Positions 11,119 to 63,915 of a stretch of DNA of 64,000 bases are shown here, piece after piece. The first letter of the stretch is position 1. Each line of letters starts with the position of its first letter. The notes under the pieces are model-generated. The model saw only the letters and a list, made by a program, of their open reading frames with translations. It ran no database searches and was not told where the DNA came from. Both the position numbers and the translations under genes were made by a program. The stretch comes from an uncultured bacterium (GTDB lineage Bacteria; Bdellovibrionota_C; UBA2361; CALJRW01), in contig CALJRW010000025.1 in assembly GCA_937976335.1 (NCBI GenBank), positions 7,103 to 71,102 on the forward strand, read 5' to 3'.

Positions 11119-11173
11119 GGATCTTTAAAAAAAATAGTGTTTGTCACAAAATAGGTTTTCAAAAAAAGATTAT

Positions 11174-11755
11174 TTAGACATTACTTTTTGGGAAAACTAT
11201 ACTTAACTCTTTAAATATTTCTTTTGCTACTTCAGAAGCAGAAAGCTTTGAAACATACAGCTCCTTAACGTCACAATTTTTAGGTTTGAAAATCTCACTT
11301 TCACGAACATTTTTAACTGCAAATTTAGGGTCTATGGACTTAGGAAATAGTTTTCTTTCAGGAGATTGAATTCTTCTTACTAGCTCATCCTCTTCAATCT
11401 TTAACAAACAAGTAAGAAATCGTGCTTTTCTTTTTTGAGCTAATTCTTTAACATTATTAAAAAGAATTTTATCTGTCTCTTTTCCTTCTCTCAGATCGTT
11501 TGTAAAAATAAAACTCATTTCGGACGGAGACAACTTAGTAATAGTATCAATAACAACATTTCTAATAATTCTTGTGCTCTCCCAAATTTCATCAGGCAAA
11601 CTACCCATTCCATCAGCACCTATTAAATCAAACAGAACATTATTTACTCTATGACTATCTACTATTTTAAATTCTGAAATTTTAGCTAATTCTTTAGCAA
11701 TAGTAAGCTTTCCAGTACCAGGAAAAGCAAGTAAATATATTATCGTATTTTTCAT
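11174..11755 (-). CDS. P-loop NTPase (small kinase-like ATP-binding protein)
   Basis: N-terminal Walker A LAFPGTGKLTIAKEL. 193 aa, in the size range of shikimate/chloramphenicol-phosphotransferase-like kinases. The C-terminal 8 codons lie inside a copy of the short hairpin repeat (11161-11210). Confidence 0.6.
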   Translation of the reverse strand: MKNTIIYLLAFPGTGKLTIAKELAKISEFKIVDSHRVNNVLFDLIGADGMGSLPDEIWESTRIIRNVVIDTITKLSPSEMSFIFTNDLREGKETDKILFNNVKELAQKRKARFLTCLLKIEEDELVRRIQSPERKLFPKSIDPKFAVKNVRESEIFKPKNCDVKELYVSKLSASEVAKEIFKELSIVFPKSNV

Positions 11756-13084: not shown

Positions 13085-13190
13085 AAACAAATAGTTATCC
13101 CAAAATCAATAACTTACATGGAAATCGAAGGTTTTCAAGAAAGAATTATTCGTAAATTACTTTTTGGGATAACTATAGTTTCTAACTAGA
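13085..13190. repeat. Hairpin repeat family B copy, plus upstream partner arm forming a long-range inverted repeat
   Basis: AAATAGTTATCCCAAAAT (13090-13107) is the reverse complement of TTTTTGGGATAACTATAG (13163-13180). The downstream arm belongs to the family-B core GTTTTCAAGAAAGAATTATTCGTAAATTACTTTTTGGGATAACTATA. Confidence 0.65.
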
Positions 13191-25605: not shown

Positions 25606-25757
25606 TTGCAATCCCTTCACCTGTTCTGGCTGCGGCGTTAGCAGTTGCTTTGGGATATTTAAGTATTACAAGGCCCTCTTCCCTAGCAAATAAATGAGCT
25701 TGCAAAGTTCTAAACTAACTAATTTATAAAAAATTCAATAAGTTAAGGTTTGCCTTA

Positions 25758-25808
25758 CGGAAATATACGAAATAACTTGATTTATATTCGTATACTTCCG
25801 TATAGTAT
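25758..25808 (+). promoter_or_regulatory. Imperfect ~20-bp-arm palindrome overlapping the likely -10 region upstream of the fic gene (candidate autoregulatory operator)
   Basis: CGGAAATATACGAAATA ... TATTCGTATACTTCCG followed by TATAGTAT, 16 nt before the ATG at 25824. Confidence 0.45.
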
Positions 25809-25823
25809 GAATAAGAAAAGAAT

Positions 25824-26960
25824 ATGCTCTCATTTAAGATTAAACCAAAAACTATACTACTTCTTCGAGAACTAACAAAAAGACTTACAAAAACTCAAAT
25901 TTTAATTGAATCACTGGAAGCTCAAGAGTTGGAATTCATTAAGCGTAATGCCCTTATTAGTAATATTGGAGCATCTACTAGGATTGAAAATGCAGTGCTC
26001 ACTAACTCTGAAATTGATTGGGTAGATACTGCCTTAACAAGTGACGGAAAAACAACATCTTTTGAAAATCAAAGAGAGGCAATTCAAGACAAGTTATCAA
26101 AAGACAAAGAGCGAAGTATTGATGAAGTTGTAGGTTGTAGAGCAATGCTACAATTAATTAACCAGCAAGCAAACAACCTTTTTCCACTTACAGAGGTGAC
26201 CTTGCGTGGGCTTCACAAGGAGTTACTTAAGTATCACGCCCCTGACAACTACCATAGTGGCGGTTACAAGCAAGTTCCTAATAGTGTTGTTCGCAAGGTG
26301 AAAATGTCAGGTTGTCCTGTAAAAGAATATCCTGTTCTTACAACTTCCCAACCAGGACTCGAAACTGAAGAAGCTATGACAGCTTTAGTTGGCTGGTATA
26401 ATAATACCCTTAAAGTTCATCCTTGGACTATTGCTGTAGCGGTAGAGTTTGTATTTAGGTTCTTAGCTATTCATCCATTTCAGGATGGTAATGGTAGGGT
26501 GGGACGTGGCTTATTTTATTTAACACTATTGCAAAGCCCTGATGATAGCATTTCTAGTACGATTTCTTACTTAGCTATTGATAGATATGTAGAAGTAGAA
26601 AGAGAGGAATATTATGCCGTTCTTAGTAGGTGCTCAGATGGTAAATTTATAGCTGACCCTACTAAGTATGCTTATGAGCATTTTTTAAATTTTATGCTTA
26701 AGGTGATCGATTGCTCGATTGACGATGTTGAGCTTTATAGGGATAAATTTAAGCGTTTAAATAGTCTTACTACCTCACAACGAGTTGTCCTAACTTGTTT
26801 TAAAGAGCAACCTGAGCTTAGATTACAAGCTAAAAATATCGTTGAGTATACCAATCTACCTCGAACAACTATCAACGATGCATTAAAAGCTTTGATAAAA
26901 AATAAATTTATTCAAAAGTATGGGCGAGGTGCTGACGTTAAGTATCAGCTGCTTTTTTGA
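25824..26960 (+). CDS. fic: Fic family protein (AMPylase/Fido domain) with C-terminal winged-helix domain
   Basis: Canonical Fic motif HPFQDGNGRVGR (HPFx[D/E]GNGR). ~200-aa N-terminal region. C-terminal HTH-like LPRTTINDALKALIKNKFI. Confidence 0.88.
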   Translation: MLSFKIKPKTILLLRELTKRLTKTQILIESLEAQELEFIKRNALISNIGASTRIENAVLTNSEIDWVDTALTSDGKTTSFENQREAIQDKLSKDKERSIDEVVGCRAMLQLINQQANNLFPLTEVTLRGLHKELLKYHAPDNYHSGGYKQVPNSVVRKVKMSGCPVKEYPVLTTSQPGLETEEAMTALVGWYNNTLKVHPWTIAVAVEFVFRFLAIHPFQDGNGRVGRGLFYLTLLQSPDDSISSTISYLAIDRYVEVEREEYYAVLSRCSDGKFIADPTKYAYEHFLNFMLKVIDCSIDDVELYRDKFKRLNSLTTSQRVVLTCFKEQPELRLQAKNIVEYTNLPRTTINDALKALIKNKFIQKYGRGADVKYQLLF

Positions 26961-27260
26961 ACTACTCTAGGAAATAAGTTTAGTTAGGAATTATGCCTAG
27001 CAATATATTTCCTGAATCCTGGTCAAGTCTTGGTAAATCCTAGTGCCAGTAACATAATAAGTCTAAATTTTCACAAATTCTACTCACTTTAGCCGAAGTT
27101 TGCTTGAAAAACGAAAAGCTGCTACTTGCTACCCTTCTCAATATGAATGTTTGCAAAATTTTCTACAAAATTACCTTGAGTTCCCCACTTACTTCACAGC
27201 ACTTATTCTCGAAAATGCTAAATAACTAGCCTCTCTGCTTTTATAAGATTTACTACTTGA

Positions 27261-27367
27261 ATATGTGCTTATTACGGCAAAAAATGGCTTTGCCATTATT
27301 TTCTCGCCCAACAAATCATTTAGTTTTCCCGCTTAAAAGCGGAAAAACCAAATGTCGTTGGGTATAT
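27261..27367 (+). repeat. MITE-A, 3'-half copy (truncated)
   Basis: TATGTGCTTATTACGGCAAAAAATGGCTTTGCCATTATTTTCTCGCCCAACAAATCATTTAGTTTTCCCGCTTAAAAGCGGAAAAACCAAATGTCGTTGGGTATA matches the 3' halves of the copies at 38.1, 45.4, 55.1(rc) and 63.8 kb. Confidence 0.8.
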
Positions 27368-27895
27368 CTAGGAGGAAAGCAAAAAAGATTCAATAATAGC
27401 ACTATTCGTAATCCCACGATTCACGGCCATTTTATTTAATTTACTGATAGCCTCAAGACTAAGGGTAAATGATTTAACTTTTTTGTGTTTATTGATGGGT
27501 TTTACTCTTTTGTCAGGAATTTCGAAATTAGCCCAATACTTCATTTTTGAGCATTCAATGCCCTTATATTTAAGTGGTAATTCGCTGCCATTTTTAATCT
27601 TTTCAATAATAGTTTGCAGTTCTTTTGGCATCTCTTCAATTCCAATAAAGTTGTTTTGAAAGTGAAGCAAGGCAGCTGGGAAAACTTCCAAAACTCTAGG
27701 CTCTACATTGCGGGCTACCCATAGAACATCTTTGATTCTTAAAATAACCTTATGTTTTGATTTTATTTTAGGATATTTTAAATAACCCTTTGCTATCAAG
27801 AATCCTAGAGTATTTTCTGCTCGTTCAGAGTTGAGATTTTTTAAGAATAGCTTTTGTAGTTCTTTGGTTTTTTTTATTATTTTATTGTTAGTCAT
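27368..27895 (-). CDS. Hypothetical protein with C-terminal ribbon-helix-helix (CopG/MetJ-like) DNA-binding domain; downstream gene of a two-gene module
   Basis: C-terminal KSFTLSLEAISKLNKMAVNRGITNSAIIESFL has the beta-strand/helix/helix RHH pattern. It starts at the nucleotide immediately after the stop of the upstream 163-aa gene. Confidence 0.55.
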   Translation of the reverse strand: MTNNKIIKKTKELQKLFLKNLNSERAENTLGFLIAKGYLKYPKIKSKHKVILRIKDVLWVARNVEPRVLEVFPAALLHFQNNFIGIEEMPKELQTIIEKIKNGSELPLKYKGIECSKMKYWANFEIPDKRVKPINKHKKVKSFTLSLEAISKLNKMAVNRGITNSAIIESFLLSS

Positions 27896-28387
27896 TTATA
27901 TTATCTCTTCTAATGAAATTTTATACTTTAAAAAGAGCTTTTCAAGCTCTACAGAGAATTCAGCTATAGCCTGTATAAGTAATTGTTTATTTTTTTCAGG
28001 TGCAAATTTAGCTTTTGAAACTAAAGTTGAAAATGAATCAATGACATGTACTGTAATCTTCTTAGAAGAATAATATTTCCAAAACTTAGCTTCTGTTGGA
28101 ATCCATATTTCTTTACTTAGTTCGTCATAGTCGTAGCCATGTGATCTTAGGATTTCTTTGAAATGAAATTTAATTGTAGAATCACCTTCAAGGAGCGCAT
28201 CTAAATCGTTAGTAGCAATTATATTTAACTTTTTATTTATGCTTTCATCTAATAATAGACTTGCTTGGCCGAGAACTTTGATTTGAATTTTCCCAGTTTT
28301 AGGTAGGCCATCTTGACAAAGTTGTTGATCGAGTTTGTTTACTATGCTTTCAAGCTCTTTTAGTATTTTATCTAAATCTTCTTTCAT
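27896..28387 (-). CDS. Hypothetical protein with possible minimal nucleotidyltransferase-like motif; upstream gene of a two-gene module (candidate toxin/abortive-infection component)
   Basis: VLGQASLLLDESINKKLNIIATNDLDALLEG resembles the G[GS]x(n)...DxD core of MNT/AbiEii-type NTases (weak, by eye). It is translationally abutted to the RHH gene. An AT-rich palindrome lies just upstream. Confidence 0.45.
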   Translation of the reverse strand: MKEDLDKILKELESIVNKLDQQLCQDGLPKTGKIQIKVLGQASLLLDESINKKLNIIATNDLDALLEGDSTIKFHFKEILRSHGYDYDELSKEIWIPTEAKFWKYYSSKKITVHVIDSFSTLVSKAKFAPEKNKQLLIQAIAEFSVELEKLFLKYKISLEEII

Positions 28388-28391
28388 AATA

Positions 28392-28432
28392 CTATATTAT
28401 AGTATTATATATTAATATAATATACTAATAAA
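28392..28432 (-). promoter_or_regulatory. AT-rich near-perfect palindrome immediately upstream of the 163-aa gene (candidate operator/promoter)
   Basis: TAGTATTATATATTAATATAATATACTA reads nearly the same on both strands. It lies 5-45 nt upstream of the start codon at 28387 (minus strand). Confidence 0.4.
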
Positions 28433-28562
28433 CTATTCTTTATTAACTTTCTGAAAATATTGAAGAAAAACCTATAAATTCGCAATCTTTGCTGCTTACT
28501 AGGTTCATTATTCTTATTTAGCTAACTGGATTAGCTCTTCTTGCTTATGGATTGTAAATTGG

Positions 28563-28748
28563 TAGCTAACTGCTACCAGCAACATTTTTATTTATTTTAC
28601 TCTACTGCTTTGCGTGAGTAACATTCTTCCGTTGTTCTTAGTTTTAAATTAAGAATTTGTTTATATCGACAAAAATTTTGAAAAGTTTCTTAATTTTTGA
28701 TTTTTTTTAGATTATTTCTGAAATAAATGTTGCTGGCACCAGTTAGTC
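28563..28748 (+). repeat. MITE-C copy 1 (~186 bp, with ~25-bp terminal inverted repeats)
   Basis: Starts TAGCTAACTGCTACCAGCAACATTT and ends AAATGTTGCTGGCACCAGTTAGTC, which are reverse complements. It is >90% identical to 30319-30507. Confidence 0.85.
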
Positions 28749-28922
28749 CACTCCTTTTCGGTGTCAAGAATTGTGACGCAACGTATATTAATTAGGTGCT
28801 AAGATACCTTTTCGGTGTCTTTTTTTATGACGCATATCGTCTCTAATTTTTTTTTGATTAAAAATACATATTTGTTAAAATAATATAAGTTAAAATTTTT
28901 CAAAATTATCTAGATATATCTT

Positions 28923-30245
28923 ATGTCATTGCAGGTTGAATATAAAAAATGCAATATTATTGATGCGACGAAGCTATTTCGAAAAAATGCCGAAATTTCA
29001 TTTAATGTTCCTGGCCGATCGCCAATTGAAATCGTAAAAAATTTAGGTGTTTTACAAGCTGATGTTGCAGAGGCTCTTGGGTTAAAATGTACTGAACGAG
29101 TTAGGCAGCTACTTGACGGAAAAAACGGTAGATTTCCATTGGAAAGAAACATAATTCGTGTGGCAACAGCTATTAAAGAACTTTGTTCTGCAAAAGTTAG
29201 AAATGGAGAGATTCTTTATCGCAAGGAAAAGAGTCAAATAGAGGAAGAAAGAAAAAAAAGTCTTTTTTTTCGTGAAATCTTTGGAAGTAATATTGATTCA
29301 ATTTTAAAACATTTTGAAGGTAAGAGTTTTAAAGAAACTTGCTTAGATCTAATTTCAAGAATTTATTTAAGTAAACGTAAGTTTTTAAGTGATCTTCAAA
29401 AATTTTCATCAGATTTTAGAAGTGATTTTTCTATTTTTACGGCAAGTGATGAAGAAATTATAACAATAGCGAAACTTTTAAAATCAGATCTAAGATTTTT
29501 TCATGAAAATCAAATTCTCTTAAAATCAAGCAAAGAAAAAACTAATGCAATTAAAAAACTTGTTTTAAACTTTTTTCTGGAGCAGGTAGGGTGGATAGGT
29601 GAAGATAATCAAGGCATTGAAAAAGATATGCCTGATGATATATTTCTAGGGTTAGAGTCCGGAGAGATACTTAAGGTTTTGCGTAATTCAGTCGGTCTTA
29701 TTCAACCTGAAATTGGAGAAGCAATAAACTTATCAAAAAAAAGGATAGCGCAAGAGTTACAAGAGCATTATAAGAAACCTTTTTTGGCTTACAGTATCGA
29801 AGATTTTGAAGCGCTAGTAGATAAAACTTTTGAGAAACATGAACTTTCAGAAATTAATTCAGGTTTGCAGTTAGCGATTATATTTGAAAAATACAATTTA
29901 ACTTCACTTAGTAGAAGAGAGAATACAGCCTCTCCCCTTCAGCTTATTGAAAGAAGTATGGTTATTGCAAATATGCTAAGGCCTAAATTGTTTTTCTTAA
30001 AATTTAAAGGCTTGCTTCAAGATAAAATTGAAGAAAGTATTAAAAGAGTAAAAACTGGGAAAGCAGAGAAGACGAAAACATTGGTCCGTCCTTGGTCAGC
30101 TAAACTAGAAAATGAGTTTAAAGAGTGGATTGCTTTGGGAGAGGAGCGTCAAATTAGAGAACGTCAAAAGTATGGCAAGGATTCGATGGTAGATCCAGGG
30201 GAGATAGTTGTTGGGGAGAAATATCAGTTTGCCTTGGAAGACTAA
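28923..30245 (+). CDS. Hypothetical 440-aa protein with two XRE-like helix-turn-helix motifs, flanked by direct MITE-C copies
   Basis: IEIVKNLGVLQADVAEALGLKCTERVRQLLDGKNG and EILKVLRNSVGLIQPEIGEAINLSKKRIAQELQ both fit HTH_3-like patterns. The rest is Lys/Glu-rich helical sequence with no recognisable catalytic motif. Confidence 0.6.
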   Translation: MSLQVEYKKCNIIDATKLFRKNAEISFNVPGRSPIEIVKNLGVLQADVAEALGLKCTERVRQLLDGKNGRFPLERNIIRVATAIKELCSAKVRNGEILYRKEKSQIEEERKKSLFFREIFGSNIDSILKHFEGKSFKETCLDLISRIYLSKRKFLSDLQKFSSDFRSDFSIFTASDEEIITIAKLLKSDLRFFHENQILLKSSKEKTNAIKKLVLNFFLEQVGWIGEDNQGIEKDMPDDIFLGLESGEILKVLRNSVGLIQPEIGEAINLSKKRIAQELQEHYKKPFLAYSIEDFEALVDKTFEKHELSEINSGLQLAIIFEKYNLTSLSRRENTASPLQLIERSMVIANMLRPKLFFLKFKGLLQDKIEESIKRVKTGKAEKTKTLVRPWSAKLENEFKEWIALGEERQIRERQKYGKDSMVDPGEIVVGEKYQFALED

Positions 30246-30318
30246 ATAGCAGATGTCTGTTAAACCTCAAATCGATCTAGAAAGGGCATATAAATTTTTA
30301 AAAAGTTAATTATGCAAA

Positions 30319-30507
30319 GTAGCTAACTGCTGCCAGCAACATTTTTATTTATTTTACTCTACTGCTTTGCGTGAGTAACATTCTTCCGTTGTTCTTAGTT
30401 TTAAATTCAGAATTTGTGTATATCAACAAAAATTCTGAAAAGTTTCTTAATTTTTGATTTTTTTTTTAGATTCTTTCTGAAATAAATGTTGCTGGCACCA
30501 GTTAGTC
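30319..30507 (+). repeat. MITE-C copy 2 (same orientation as copy 1)
   Basis: Near-identical to 28563-28748, including the TIRs TAGCTAACTGCTGCCAGCAACATTT / AAATGTTGCTGGCACCAGTTAGTC. Confidence 0.85.
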
Positions 30508-30519
30508 TACTATAGCTTT

Positions 30520-30846
30520 CTACAAAAAACTAGTCATATGAACAACATTCTGATTAGCTAGAGCTTTAACACCCAATTCAGTAACACTCCAAATTCTTGA
30601 GGTAAAATCTCCTATAGGATGAGGAGAAACATACTTATGACCTTCTAAAATAAATAAAGACCTCTGAACATCATGTTCATCTTTTCCAAGAGCAAGGGCT
30701 AGTTCATCAATTCTATAAGGCCTAGCATTTTTAGCACTAGTAGCCCCTTCAGCCATTTTTGTTAATACAACTACTTGATTTTGGTACCTTTCGTTCTCTT
30801 CTTCCGTTAATTTTGACTTATCTTCAGCTGAATTTTCACCTATCAT
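30520..30846 (-). CDS. Hypothetical small protein (108 aa), possible winged-helix DNA-binding fold
   Basis: YRIDELALALGKDEHDVQRSLFILEGHKYV resembles the recognition helix plus wing of wHTH regulators. Its stop codon abuts MITE-C copy 2. Confidence 0.45.
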   Translation of the reverse strand: MIGENSAEDKSKLTEEENERYQNQVVVLTKMAEGATSAKNARPYRIDELALALGKDEHDVQRSLFILEGHKYVSPHPIGDFTSRIWSVTELGVKALANQNVVHMTSFL

Positions 30847-31021
30847 AATAGTTTATATCCTCTCATTTGTAAGCATATTAGCTTTAACTCAAGAATTATA
30901 TCAAATTAAGGAGTTTAAGCAAATATAGCTGTTTTTACCTACTCACTCTCAAACTATAGTTATAACTTACTAAATCACAATAACTTTAAATCTTTCATAA
31001 CATTAAAGAAGAAAATATTAG

Positions 31022-32533
31022 ATGAAATTTTTTGGCAAATTACAGAATTTAGAAAATCTTGGTCGAAGCTCTAAAGTTAAGATGACCAGAAGGTCTGCCC
31101 TTCTTTTCGGTCTTGCGACTTTTGGTGTTGGCTGTGTTGCAGAAAAAAAGAAATCTCCTTTGAATAAGAACTCCAATAGCCAAGCTAGTGGAAAGTTTAG
31201 AGCTCTAGTAAAACCAATTATTGCTAGAGCAGGCTTGTTAAAATCTCAATTGAAAGATATTTCTTTGAGTGCACTTGAAGAATTCAAAAATCAAGGACAT
31301 AAACTTACACTATTTCCTGTAACAGAACTTTCAAATAGAATTGTTTTATCTTTAAAATTAAATGAAAATTTTAGAAGAATCGATCCATCAGGTAATATTT
31401 ATCTAGAAAAAATCAAAATTCTTATCAAAACATCAAAGCAACTTGGCGAAGATGAGCTATCACAAAAGTTAGAAAAATTGCTTAATCTTGAAAAATATTT
31501 CGATAGAAATATTAAACCGGATATAATAAAAAAGAGAACTAACACCGAAGCTTATCTTAAGAAAGAAGAGCGGTATACCACTGAAAAAAGTAATCTTTTA
31601 ACTGATATCGCTAATAATCATGGTATAAGTATAACTTACCTTGCAGACGCCATACCTATTACAGGAAAATTTATACAAGAAGGAAAAACTGGGCAGTATC
31701 AAGCTTTTATTGTTCATTCTTTAGATAAAGAAGAATATTTAGGTTTAGAAGGATTAAATCTTGATGGTGGGCTTACATCTGTTTTTTTAAATAGCGCCCC
31801 AGCACAAAATGCCTCAAAGTTCTTTAGCTCAGTGATTGCAAACGAATTTTCGCATACATACTTTAGAAGAGTTTGGGAAAAATTTTGCAATTTACATTTA
31901 GAAAGAATTGATTTTTCAAAAATAAAGCTGTTTAGAAAAGCTGGCAAAAAGAAAACACAATTTTTCAAACGTGCTCTTGAACCTCGCACCACAGGCGAGC
32001 TATCTGAGCTATTTTCTGATTCATGGTCAAGTCAAATAAATCCAAGAGAACTTTCAAGAATAGGAATTAACAGCCTTAGTATGCTACTAAATAGTGGAGT
32101 AAGAAGCTCAATCAGTCAAAGTAACTTCTCTCCTGCTACAGTAGATCACGCTAATTATTATTGTGGCGACAGAAATTCTAATTATCGTTTAACACATGTA
32201 GTGTTTTTGCAAACAATGCACGAATGTTTTCTAGCAGATTCTAATTTAAAAGGTTATGAAAATATTTTATCTCTAGTAAATGCTAAAGAAGAAGCGATAG
32301 TTAAAATCTTAAAGCAAATTAATGAAACTCGTAAAAGTAAAAATCCTAATGACAAATCTAAAATACATCTTCTAGATATAGAGTTACATGAAAAGTGCCA
32401 ATTAGAGGATTTTTACTTAGAGATTATAAATAAAATCCCAGAAAGGTATCTACTTGAGTTTCAAAAAGCATTAAAACACTATGAAGATGAATATACTAAT
32501 GTGCTTAGACAACATAAAAATCAACTAAACTAA
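31022..32533 (+). CDS. Putative Tat-exported lipoprotein, function unknown
   Basis: Twin-arginine-like signal MTRRSALLFGLATFGVGC with a lipobox Cys. The real start may be the ATG at ~31082. The remaining ~480 aa are unrecognised. Confidence 0.6.
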   Translation: MKFFGKLQNLENLGRSSKVKMTRRSALLFGLATFGVGCVAEKKKSPLNKNSNSQASGKFRALVKPIIARAGLLKSQLKDISLSALEEFKNQGHKLTLFPVTELSNRIVLSLKLNENFRRIDPSGNIYLEKIKILIKTSKQLGEDELSQKLEKLLNLEKYFDRNIKPDIIKKRTNTEAYLKKEERYTTEKSNLLTDIANNHGISITYLADAIPITGKFIQEGKTGQYQAFIVHSLDKEEYLGLEGLNLDGGLTSVFLNSAPAQNASKFFSSVIANEFSHTYFRRVWEKFCNLHLERIDFSKIKLFRKAGKKKTQFFKRALEPRTTGELSELFSDSWSSQINPRELSRIGINSLSMLLNSGVRSSISQSNFSPATVDHANYYCGDRNSNYRLTHVVFLQTMHECFLADSNLKGYENILSLVNAKEEAIVKILKQINETRKSKNPNDKSKIHLLDIELHEKCQLEDFYLEIINKIPERYLLEFQKALKHYEDEYTNVLRQHKNQLN

Positions 32534-38065: not shown

Positions 38066-38252
38066 ATAGTGCTAGACATTCGGTTTTTCCGTTTTTTTTT
38101 CTTGCAATTTTTGCATAGCATAAATTCAGTTTTATTTGTTCGAGCAGTATATGTGTTTATTACGGCAAAAAATGGCTCCGCCATTATTTTGCTCGCCCAA
38201 CAAATCATTTAGTTTTCCCGCTTGAAAGTGGAAAAACCAAATGACGACAGAT
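38066..38252 (+). repeat. MITE-A copy (full-length, ~190 bp)
   Basis: Begins ...TAGTGCTAGACATTCGGTTTTTCCG and ends CGCTTGAAAGTGGAAAAACCAAATGACGACAGATATA. The internal sequence TTGCAATTTTTGCATAGCATAAATTCAGTTTTATTTGTTCGAGCAGTATATGTG...TTACGGCAAAAAATGGCTCCGCCATTATTTTGCTCGCCCAACAAATCATTTAGTTTTCCCGCTTGAAAG is shared with the other copies. Confidence 0.85.
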
Positions 38253-38387
38253 ATATAAATTTTATAAGCTTTCCCTTACACTTTAATGTTTCTTATTAAG
38301 TCGATTACATTTTTTAGAAAAAAAGTACTAAATTTATACCTTGGATTTATCGAAGAAAGTATTTATTAAAATTTAAGAAATTCGAAA

Positions 38388-45277: not shown

Positions 45278-45340
45278 ATTGAGATGATAGGCTCAATTAG
45301 CAGATAATTTTGATAAACTACAGTTTTTCTGTATATACTA

Positions 45341-45532
45341 AAACATATTAGGTTTTACTGTTTTTTTCTTAAAATTTATGCATAGCATAAATTCAGATTT
45401 ATTTGTTCGAGCAGTATATGTGCTTATTGCGGCAAAAAATGGCTCCACCATTATTTTGCTCGCCCAACAAATCATTTACTTTTCCCGCTTGAAAGCGGTA
45501 AAACCAAATGTCGTTGGGTATAATTGATTGTA
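45341..45532 (+). repeat. MITE-A copy (full-length)
   Basis: GTATATACTAAAACATATTAGGTTTTACTG ... AGCGGTAAAACCAAATGTCGTTGGGTATA. Terminal segments are mutually reverse complementary (~27 nt). Confidence 0.85.
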
Positions 45533-63074: not shown

Positions 63075-63521
63075 ATGGTATTCTTAGATCTTATACAAGC
63101 TAATGAAATTATGCCTTTGTTAATAGCTACCGGATTAGGCAGTCTCATTGGCTTAGAGCGTGAAATTGCAGGAAAAGACCCAAGCCTTAGAACATTTTCT
63201 CTTATCTGTCTTGGCAGTTGCTTATTCACTATAATGTCTACAGAAGCAGCCTTAGGGGTGCCAAATGCTGATCCTGGACGAATAGGCGCACAACTAGTCT
63301 CAGGTATTGGCTTTCTTGGAGCTGGTGCTATTTTTAGATCCAAGGATGGGGTTGCAGGACTTACCACAGCAGCCTTGATATGGATGACGGCAGCTATTGG
63401 TATGAGTGTTGGATTTGGAAAGTATAAAACCGCAATTACGAGTACTATAATTGCTTTAGCCATTCTTACTAGTCTTAGTTTAGTGCATAAAATTTTTCGT
63501 GCTTTACGATCTGATAAATGA
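63075..63521 (+). CDS. mgtC: MgtC/SapB family membrane protein
   Basis: ATGLGSLIGLEREIAGK...GAQLVSGIGFLGAGAIFR...GLTTAALIWMTAAIGMSVG is the conserved MgtC N-terminal domain. 148 aa. Confidence 0.82.
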   Translation: MVFLDLIQANEIMPLLIATGLGSLIGLEREIAGKDPSLRTFSLICLGSCLFTIMSTEAALGVPNADPGRIGAQLVSGIGFLGAGAIFRSKDGVAGLTTAALIWMTAAIGMSVGFGKYKTAITSTIIALAILTSLSLVHKIFRALRSDK

Positions 63522-63522
63522 A

Positions 63523-63832
63523 TATACTGCGCGACATTAGGTTTTACCGTTTTTTTTCTTGCAATTTGTGCAGAGCATAAATTCAGTTTTATTTGTTTGA
63601 GCAGTATATACTAAAACACATTAGGTTTTTCCGCTTTTTTGTCAAAGACTAAAGCCTAAACTTTGTGTTTTAGTATATGTGCTTATATTGGTTCGATTTG
63701 GCTAAAGCCAAAGTCTCACTCATCACCAAACTTTTTGAGTTTTTAGGAAAAACTCAAAATCGGTGACTATATGTGCTTATTAAGGCAAAAAATAGCTTCG
63801 CCATTGTTTTGCTCGCCCAACAAATCATCTAT
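63523..63832 (+). repeat. MITE-A composite copy: one unit interrupted by a nested ~150-bp insertion, 3' end truncated
   Basis: 5' part AATATACTGCGCGACATTAGGTTTTACCG...GTTTGAGCAGTATATA. The insert begins again with CTAAAACACATTAGGTTTTTCCG and contains the IR TATATACTAAAACACA / TGTGTTTTAGTATATG. The original unit then resumes with GTGCTTATTAAGGCAAAAAATAGCTTCGCCATTGTTTTGCTCGCCCAACAAATCATC. Confidence 0.75.
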
Positions 63833-63839
63833 AGAAAGT

Positions 63840-63915
63840 ACAAAAAGTAATTTCCGAAAAAAAGAATTATTCGGAAATTACTTTTTGGGATAAATATAAA
63901 CCTGAATTCAGGTTA
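63840..63915. repeat. Hairpin repeat family B copy (perfect 17-bp inverted repeat) adjacent to a CCTGAATTCAGG palindrome
   Basis: AAAAAGTAATTTCCGAA aaaaagaattat TTCGGAAATTACTTTTT GGGATAAATATA. Related copies at 11161-11210 and 13131-13190 share AGAATTATTCG-AAATTACTTTTTGGGATAACTATA. Confidence 0.75.

Follow-up and report, generated by a model that had tools for sequence, protein, structure and literature searches.

What do two abutting minus-strand genes of an uncultured Bdellovibrionota_C bacterium encode, and do the genes around them take part in the same system? The two genes, called here A (163 aa) and B (175 aa), lie in segment 25,606-31,021 of a 64,000-nucleotide stretch of contig CALJRW010000025.1 (assembly GCA_937976335.1); this whole stretch is referred to as the window, and coordinates without a locus name are window positions. 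A preliminary description of the same DNA had pointed to the pair as the possible core of an undescribed toxin-antitoxin (TA) or abortive-infection system within a mobile or defence island. We propose, with a probability of about 0.6, that A and B form a toxin-antitoxin-like operon, that is, a self-contained and horizontally mobile module from an unannotated family, in which A would be a nucleotidyltransferase (NTase) toxin and B would carry a novel antidote domain. The proposal is built on comparative sequence analysis and predicted structures, and turns on the following elements.

27368-27895, minus strand: gene B, 175 aa, a helical domain of ~125 aa followed by a linker and a ribbon-helix-helix (RHH)-like tail; proposed antitoxin and autorepressor.
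27896-28387, minus strand: gene A, 163 aa, a predicted minimal protein of nucleotidyltransferase fold; proposed MenT-like toxin.
27918-27945, minus strand: promoter-like site in the 3' end of A, TTGAAA-16-TAAAAT, 10/12.
28386-28446, minus strand: A/B leader and proposed operator, nested palindromes overlapping promoter-like hexamers.

The stop codon of A (27896-27898) directly adjoins the ATG of B (27895), as described previously. Single-sequence searches of 5.8 billion proteins returned 5 clusters for A and 19 for B, and a profile search widened A to 109 protein clusters, none of which has a Pfam domain or a functional name. Pfam, NCBIfam and PADLOC hold no model for either family, and no prior description was found in the searchable literature. 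A scan of one genome per species (185,579 species) located the A family at 52 loci with a patchy distribution. The majority (38/52) belong to Bdellovibrionota, namely Bdellovibrionales, Bacteriovoracaceae, Halobacteriovorax marinus, Oligoflexia and Pseudobdellovibrionaceae, and the remaining loci come from a few Desulfobacterales, Myxococcales, Dadabacteria, Acidobacteriota and unclassified metagenome-assembled genomes (MAGs).

Open reading frames (ORFs) were called in the fetched loci and scored with hidden Markov models of the A and B families, giving about 57 non-redundant loci. Wherever a locus extends far enough past A, B comes next on the same strand. The start of B falls between -8 and +12 nt from the stop of A in 44 of 52 non-redundant loci, 14 of these being ATGA-type overlaps. 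The distance matrices of the two families correlate (Mantel r=0.76, p<=0.0005), a value to which shared species phylogeny could contribute, and two MAGs hold two copies of the pair each, the copies being only ~38% identical. No third gene is conserved within 5 kb on either side across the 57 loci; the neighbours are diverse ordinary genes, unrelated between loci, among which only tyrosine integrases (4 loci) and Fic genes (4 loci, the window included) recur. The pair thus recurs as an obligate unit in unrelated contexts, with the NTase-like gene first and the gene with the RHH-like tail second, and does not behave as a housekeeping pair in conserved synteny. Taken together, obligate pairing, correlated distances and varied neighbours indicate an autonomous, horizontally moving two-gene module with co-evolving partners. 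Carriage by phages or plasmids was considered as its vehicle and rejected: gene B is absent from annotated plasmids, annotated phages and IMG/VR. A single viral contig carries an A/B pair, at its end.

The AlphaFold2 model of A, computed from an 80-sequence alignment, is confident (pLDDT 94.4, pTM 0.87) and has the topology alpha-beta-alpha-beta-alpha-beta-beta, followed by a helical lobe. A faint GQAS...DLD pattern, which had first suggested a minimal NTase, proves to be the conserved core of the family: G40, Q41, T59, D61 and D63 are invariant in the 80 sequences, as are S124-K125-A126 and K132, and N133 and D117 are nearly so. In the model, G40-Q41 is placed at the beta1/alpha2 junction, D61-x-D63 on beta2, and S124-K125-A126 together with K132 in the helical lobe, in agreement with the core of pol-beta NTases (hG[GS] between beta1 and alpha2, DxD on beta2). 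Among the listed structures compared with the model, ANT(2'')-Ia (AadB) scored 6.8, the MenT1 toxin 5.3, TM1012 5.2, an H. pylori NTase 5.0, MenT4 and LnuA 4.1 each and TglT/MenT3 4.0, with GlnE domains also lower in the list. The NTase fold suspected in the preliminary description is therefore found in the predicted structure, and we consider it likely for A.

Foldseek of A against the full PDB gave nothing significant (best E=0.034), the top matches being TUTases and a CCA-adding enzyme, and when PDB sequences were searched with the A and B profiles, nothing meaningful came up. DUF1814/AbiEii (PF08843) does not match the A protein of the window at E<=1, and is absent from the 80 family members among the first 25 of 38 Pfam families listed, in NCBIfam and among the PADLOC AbiE models. 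Stray sub-threshold matches of the family are to DUF6036, Lnu(P), CCA-NTase, ANT(6) and GlnE.

The active site itself invites comparison with the MenT toxins. In MenT1, the Thr of the motif T39-R40-D41-x-D43 is the phospho-acceptor, the DxD binds Mg2+ and the Lys K137 binds the nucleotide. The A consensus T59-R-D61-L-D63 mirrors this motif. MenT proteins have a Ser or Thr at position -2 from the first catalytic Asp (T39 in MenT1, S78 in MenT3); it corresponds in A to the invariant T59, which is the predicted phospho-acceptor. Motifs III and IV, which in MenT are C-terminal and specific to the toxins (catalytic Lys K137/K189 and Asp D152/D211), may have their equivalents in S124-K125-A126 and K132 of A, the motif-IV Asp being perhaps replaced. 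By this analogy, a MenT-like activity of A is plausible.

The AlphaFold2 model of B is confident (pLDDT 91.5) and consists of the helical domain of ~125 aa, a less confident linker, and an extended segment with two helices. The first of these parts is a new conserved domain without a recognisable known fold, in which the most conserved stretch reads DVLWVAxNVEPRVLEVFPAAxLHF. The tail, previously recognised as an RHH segment, indeed has the strand-helix-helix order (strand ~141-146, helices 147-160 and 164-174), and draws sub-threshold matches to several RHH models: NikA-like in 4 of 19 members, RHH_1, CopG_antitoxin, a PHROG CopG-like repressor and BrnA (NCBIfam, residues 132-172, E=0.13).

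What would such a tail bind? The preliminary description had placed one perfect AT palindrome at the promoter of the pair. The leader is palindromic, but the palindrome is not a single perfect one: a perfect 11+11 palindrome (28386-28396 / 28398-28408, 1-nt spacer) touches the start codon of A, and is nested with a second one of 14+14 at 86% (28400-28427). Across the family, an operator of the form GTA-NN-TAC, mostly GTATTTAC, is found at -80 to +40 of the A start in 31 of 54 loci (P~1e-45, the background rate being 0.012 per 121 nt), and it is often lengthened to palindromes such as TTGTATTTACAA and ATATTGTATTTACAATAT. A second operator class, GTGCA-NN-TGCAC, goes together with Asn at the outward-facing ribbon position 2 of B in 4 of 5 loci, a residue seen there in 0 of 30 GTA-NN-TAC loci; the GTGCA-class loci share ancestry, which limits the statistical weight of this co-variation. 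It is still what would be predicted of a repressor that reads DNA with its ribbon. The window itself has Thr144 in B where at least 90% of relatives have Arg, and its operator is a variant with GTAT/ATAC half-sites and a different spacing. We conclude that the comparative evidence for DNA binding by B, which stays a prediction, is stronger than the RHH profile matches.

The sigma-70-like site at 27918-27945 lies inside the 3' end of A and precedes the ATG of B by about 22 nt. It is among the best of the region, where the number of such sites is not above chance. From this position it would allow transcription of B alone, an arrangement known from some toxin-first TA operons; the site is weak evidence for a possible separate promoter.

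Which partner, if any, would be harmful? A damaged or missing A beside an intact B occurs at four loci. At L008, A is wholly absent and the orphan B keeps an upstream palindrome, ATAGTGCATTTGCACTAT; at L063, A is reduced to residues 95-163; L061 has a frameshift in A, and L062 an internal deletion plus a frameshift. The B proteins of the A-damaged loci retain their conserved core (23/23 and 16-18/23 reference positions), within the range of the family. The reverse situation, in which B would be lost or damaged beside an intact A, was found at no locus; the sole weak scorer, B of L053, is the full-length divergent partner of a divergent A. Decay restricted to A is the signature of toxin loss with the antitoxin kept, and points to A as the toxin and B as the antitoxin and autorepressor. 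As a separate observation, the orphan B of L008 stands divergent beside a SIR2_2-domain gene (616-2305).

The same decay argues against reversed, MNT/HEPN-like roles. In that arrangement, as in type VII MntA/HepT, B would be the protein that inhibits growth, and A a protective NTase that inactivates it by modification. The gene order would suit it, because in mntA-hepT the NTase also comes first and the partner second, and the N-terminal domain of B is strongly conserved, with the charged invariants D56, E65, R67, E70, D128 and R130, as in an active protein. Yet it is A alone that decays while B persists, and we judge the reversal to be very unlikely. The HEPN/MNT assignment as such was rejected on two counts: nothing in B resembles HEPN, and B persists where A has been lost.

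Coupling and decay bear equally on a reading that involves no TA system, in which A would be a benign or small-molecule NTase (like the resistance enzymes ANT(2'')-Ia or Lnu, which are of similar size) and B its regulator or substrate-binding subunit, the two forming an accessory metabolic or resistance cassette. ANT(2'')-Ia is the highest-scoring structure in the list above, but its identity to A, like that of Lnu, is 11-12% with no significant profile match, and to our knowledge ANT and Lnu genes act alone and need no obligate, translationally coupled partner. A benign enzyme also fits poorly with the strict coupling through overlapping stop and start codons, with divergent copies in one genome, with the recurrent decay of A only, with a patchy distribution lacking conserved neighbours, and with autoregulatory palindromes at the start codon, a pattern of TA modules. 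Finally, the invariant Thr of A, at -2 from the first Asp, is at the position of the MenT phospho-acceptor. We consider this reading unlikely. The toxin-antitoxin reading is in keeping with the generic type II-like pattern, all of whose features are seen here: two small co-directional coupled genes, a palindromic operator, a patchy, mobile distribution, and orphan antitoxins without orphan toxins.

We hypothesize that the operon would work as follows. A would be a minimal nucleotidyltransferase of the MenT/AbiEii type and, by analogy, may add nucleotides to the 3' end of RNA, most plausibly to tRNA acceptor stems, thereby blocking translation. B would be translated in coupling with A, and its N-terminal domain may neutralise A, whether through direct binding or by causing A to auto-phosphorylate at Thr59, like MenA on MenT. 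A dimer of the C-terminal RHH would bind the palindromic operator over the promoter and start codon and repress the operon, as the comparative evidence suggests. The fic gene, the 440-aa gene and the 108-aa ORF nearby would be unrelated neighbours in a variable region rich in miniature inverted-repeat transposable elements (MITEs), and not members of one system. A bolder version of the proposal holds that the B domain is a new fold controlling a MenT-like NTase in its own way (through Thr59 auto-phosphorylation, or through a DarG-like enzymatic reversal), and that the pair founds a mechanistically new TA class centred on predatory Bdellovibrionota, possibly with a life-cycle role beyond addiction; this would be a quite unlikely outcome.

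How does the pair relate to systems already described? It resembles MenAT/AbiE most, in that its toxin would be an NTase whose active site reads S/T-x-D-x-D, its antidote would bind DNA and its operon would be autoregulated. Several differences set it apart. Besides the lack of a DUF1814/AbiEii match among the 80 A members (Pfam: first 25 of 38 families listed), A has 163 aa compared with ~190-300 aa for those toxins and has G-Q instead of G-S. It lies upstream of B in all loci, whereas MenT toxin genes lie downstream of their antitoxin genes. B is not COG5340/AbiEi, COG4861 or MenA1-like, and is without the N-terminal winged helix-turn-helix (wHTH) and AbiEi C-terminal domain of AbiEi/MenA3 (COG5340); it has instead the new domain of ~125 aa and a C-terminal RHH-like tail.

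With HEPN/MNT modules, the pair shares a minimal NTase encoded first, a similar-sized partner encoded second and tight coupling. It differs from them in that B carries an RHH-like tail and has neither a HEPN fold nor an Rx4-6H motif, and in that the decay pattern marks the NTase, not the partner, as dispensable and harmful. The preliminary description was thus right that the layout departs from both canonical AbiE, where the toxin is downstream, and MNT/HEPN. BrnT/BrnA offers a third parallel, with its toxin-first order, an RHH at the antitoxin C-terminus and the weak BrnA match on B; here A is an NTase-like protein and not a RelE-fold RNase, the N-terminal domain of B is unrelated, and the BrnA match is far below cut-off.

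A number of observations weigh against the toxin-antitoxin reading. The N-terminal domain of B is well folded, and its conservation is roughly that of A; both are unusual for a simple antitoxin, and the domain could have an activity of its own. In A, G-Q stands where a G-S motif is expected, it is doubtful which residue is the counterpart of the motif-IV Asp of MenT, and no profile ties the protein to DUF1814/AbiEii or any NTase family at significance. The operator consensus of the family is absent from the window's own operator, and the correlation of A and B distances may in part be that of their host species. The four degenerate-A loci are a small number and come from MAGs, in which frameshifts could be assembly errors.

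One further observation concerns the position of the pair in genomes. At 6 of 56 loci, a tRNA or tmRNA gene is no more than ~500 nt away from it, for a rough expectation of ~1 (L017 7367-7453, L019 3930-4006, L032 8992-9067, L034 1138-1490, L039 7607-7682 and L045 9545-9629), and in L032 a tRNA-His directly adjoins the stop of B. These genes could mark island integration sites; their proximity is curious since MenT-type toxins act on tRNA.

Do the neighbouring genes of the window belong to the system? The rest of the segment contains the following features.

25756-25802, no strand: palindrome before fic, an inverted repeat, 94% complementary.
25824-26960, plus strand: fic, 378 aa, matched by PADLOC SoFic, Pfam Fic and PDB chains.
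27260-27366, no strand: MITE-A fragment, from a repeat family with fuller copies elsewhere in the window.
28562-28752, plus strand: MITE-C copy 1, ~190 bp, with 22-nt terminal inverted repeats (TIRs) at 28566-28587 / 28725-28746.
28923-30245, plus strand: orphan ORF of 440 aa with normal coding statistics.
30319-30511, plus strand: MITE-C copy 2, oriented like copy 1 and 96-97% identical to it.
30520-30846, minus strand: singleton ORF of 108 aa with normal coding statistics.

The ORF map returned the five ORFs of the segment at the positions given by the preliminary description. Codon usage, scored as a log-likelihood with 25 long ORFs of the window as the training set, supports coding in frame for all five, the 440-aa ORF included (0.20-0.37 bits/codon, compared with -0.8 to -1.4 in other frames). 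Fic and B have low codon scores (0.20-0.21 bits/codon, against 0.33 +- 0.05 for the long genes of the window), and the third-position GC content (GC3) of B is 0.29 against 0.22 +- 0.03; the codon score of A is typical. These values are a weak hint of foreign origin. The GC content of the patch does not deviate. Pfam, NCBIfam, PADLOC and PHROGs, run on all ORFs and on the whole families, gave significant matches for the Fic protein alone, and the earlier remark that the patch has no housekeeping gene holds insofar as no ORF here matches a housekeeping family. Close relatives of the genome were sought and none was found, the window proteins all being singletons at 90% identity; a metagenome scan with the flanking histidine kinase gave generic kinase-domain matches at 26% identity and nothing else.

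The fic gene is an ordinary SoFic-type gene. SoFic proteins are class II Fic AMPylases with a C-terminal wHTH, and are listed among single-gene anti-phage systems. The window protein matches the PADLOC SoFic model at 1.2e-31 over residues 5-369, that is, over the full length, and Pfam Fic at 3.5e-12, with weak MarR/TrmB-type wHTH matches at 313-376; it also matches solved PDB chains of Fido, Fic and SoFic proteins. Its translation contains the active-site motif HPFQDGNGRVGR, as noted before, and an N-terminal inhibitory-type motif, S51-x-x-x-E55-N56. All the features of a SoFic protein are thus present, namely the HxFx(D/E)GNGRxxR motif, the (S/T)xxxE(G/N) motif, the C-terminal wHTH and the full-length model match. 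The score is far under the NCBIfam SoFic equivalog cut-off (41.9 against 550 bits), and the protein is therefore a SoFic member at the level of architecture, not an orthologue.

For E. coli Sofic, a small downstream antitoxin, AS1, has been reported (PMC12249575). None is recognisable 3' of the window gene: the gap between fic and B spans ~400 bp (26961-27367), and the ~300 bp before MITE-A (26961-27256) offer TTG-start ORFs of ~41 aa only. Upstream of fic, the palindrome that had been seen as its own operator was also found. Its arms of 16 nt each (25756-25771 / 25787-25802, 15-nt spacer, 94% complementary) end 22 nt before the ATG and are overlapped by a promoter-like site (25777-25806). The palindrome is a candidate operator for the C-terminal winged-helix domain of Fic itself.

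Of the repeats reported earlier, the MITE-A fragment is there at 27260-27366, with fuller copies at 38094-38255, 45361-45522 and 63768-63831. It carries a terminator-like hairpin of 17 bp (27317-27354, minus strand), which follows the stop of gene B at a distance of 14 nt, and an Rfam scan of the region returned one sub-threshold, meaningless match, on this hairpin. The two direct copies of MITE-C are confirmed as well, where 0 chance matches are expected, and are the only ones in our data. Set against the features that define a MITE, this repeat has the size (~190 bp), the TIRs (22 nt) and more than one copy (two); the sequence flanking either copy or the pair shows no evident target-site duplication. 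Further short interspersed repeat families are found in the window at 38085-38255, 45331-45522, 63520-63901, 11153-11204 and 13129-13180. Between MITE-C copy 1 and the 440-aa gene lies a 28-nt direct repeat (28753-28780 / 28807-28834, CCTTTTCGGTGTC...ATGACGCA), 79% identical and spaced 54 nt start to start, with a terminator-like hairpin at 28801-28821; the repeats could be regulator-binding sites.

The 440-aa protein has no homologue but itself in an exhaustive HMMER search of 1.84 billion representative proteins. Four libraries gave no domain match and a PDB search gave no relative, and the protein is free of internal repeats. The two XRE-like helix-turn-helix (HTH) motifs once read in it are not confirmed: there is no Pfam match at E<=1, the first motif has no support, and the second corresponds to the sole HTH trace, TIGR03070 at E=0.11 over residues 247-276. 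Its description as cargo of a composite element is not supported either: only the MITE flanks speak for it, with no evident target-site duplication and no second copy or homologue. The 108-aa ORF, taken earlier for a wHTH protein, is a singleton without a significant family or structure match (best match HVO_A0114 at E=0.018, nothing in a PDB search). Just outside the patch, a 503-aa ORF (31022-32533) is another singleton with no match in Pfam, NCBIfam, PADLOC or PHROGs, and its N-terminus resembles a lipoprotein or signal sequence (...GLATFGVGC).

Could the whole of 25.6-30.9 kb nevertheless be one defence or mobile island, in which Fic, A/B and the 440-aa regulator cooperate and the MITE pair mobilises the 440-aa gene? 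A SoFic-like Fic is among the listed anti-phage systems; of the 57 loci, 4 have a Fic gene and another 4 a tyrosine integrase at 5 kb or less from the pair; the MITE copies flank the 440-aa gene; and the codon adaptation of Fic and B is below average. Against this, the pair occurs without Fic in 53 of 57 loci, and relatives of the 440-aa and 108-aa proteins, both singletons or orphans, in none. Few PADLOC defence genes stand beside the pair elsewhere, the GC content is unremarkable, a target-site duplication is evident neither around the MITE pair nor around its single copies, and Pfam, NCBIfam and PADLOC find no transposase among the ORFs of the region. We regard such an island as highly improbable. 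The central idea of the preliminary description, that on the pair, was right; its view of the whole 5-kb patch as one module or defence island finds no support.

A defence-island setting for the pair itself was likewise rejected, since its neighbours across the 57 loci are mostly ordinary genes with few PADLOC matches and the pair is absent from annotated plasmids and phages. Fic genes near the pair are found at L015 (2257-3414), L025 (9562-10848), L038 (10059-11174) and in the window (25824-26960); the proximity of Fic and integrases to the pair suggests shared variable regions and not a functional link.

NTase toxins such as MenT and AbiEii are a recently understood route to translation shutdown, with relevance to tuberculosis persistence and phage defence. 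Because A and B have no entry in Pfam, NCBIfam or PADLOC, their family currently escapes both annotation and the programs that look for defence systems. Candidate residues and sites emerge from the comparisons: D61, D63 and K125 for catalysis, T59 as phospho-acceptor, the operator GTATTTAC, and ribbon position 2 for specificity. Should the pair prove non-toxic, it would still be a conserved, unannotated enzyme-regulator cassette. If the toxin-antitoxin reading is true, the NTase toxin class would gain a much smaller enzyme in a reversed gene order, with an antidote that joins an unknown, highly conserved domain to an RHH, and a host range dominated by predatory bacteria, in which TA biology is almost unstudied.

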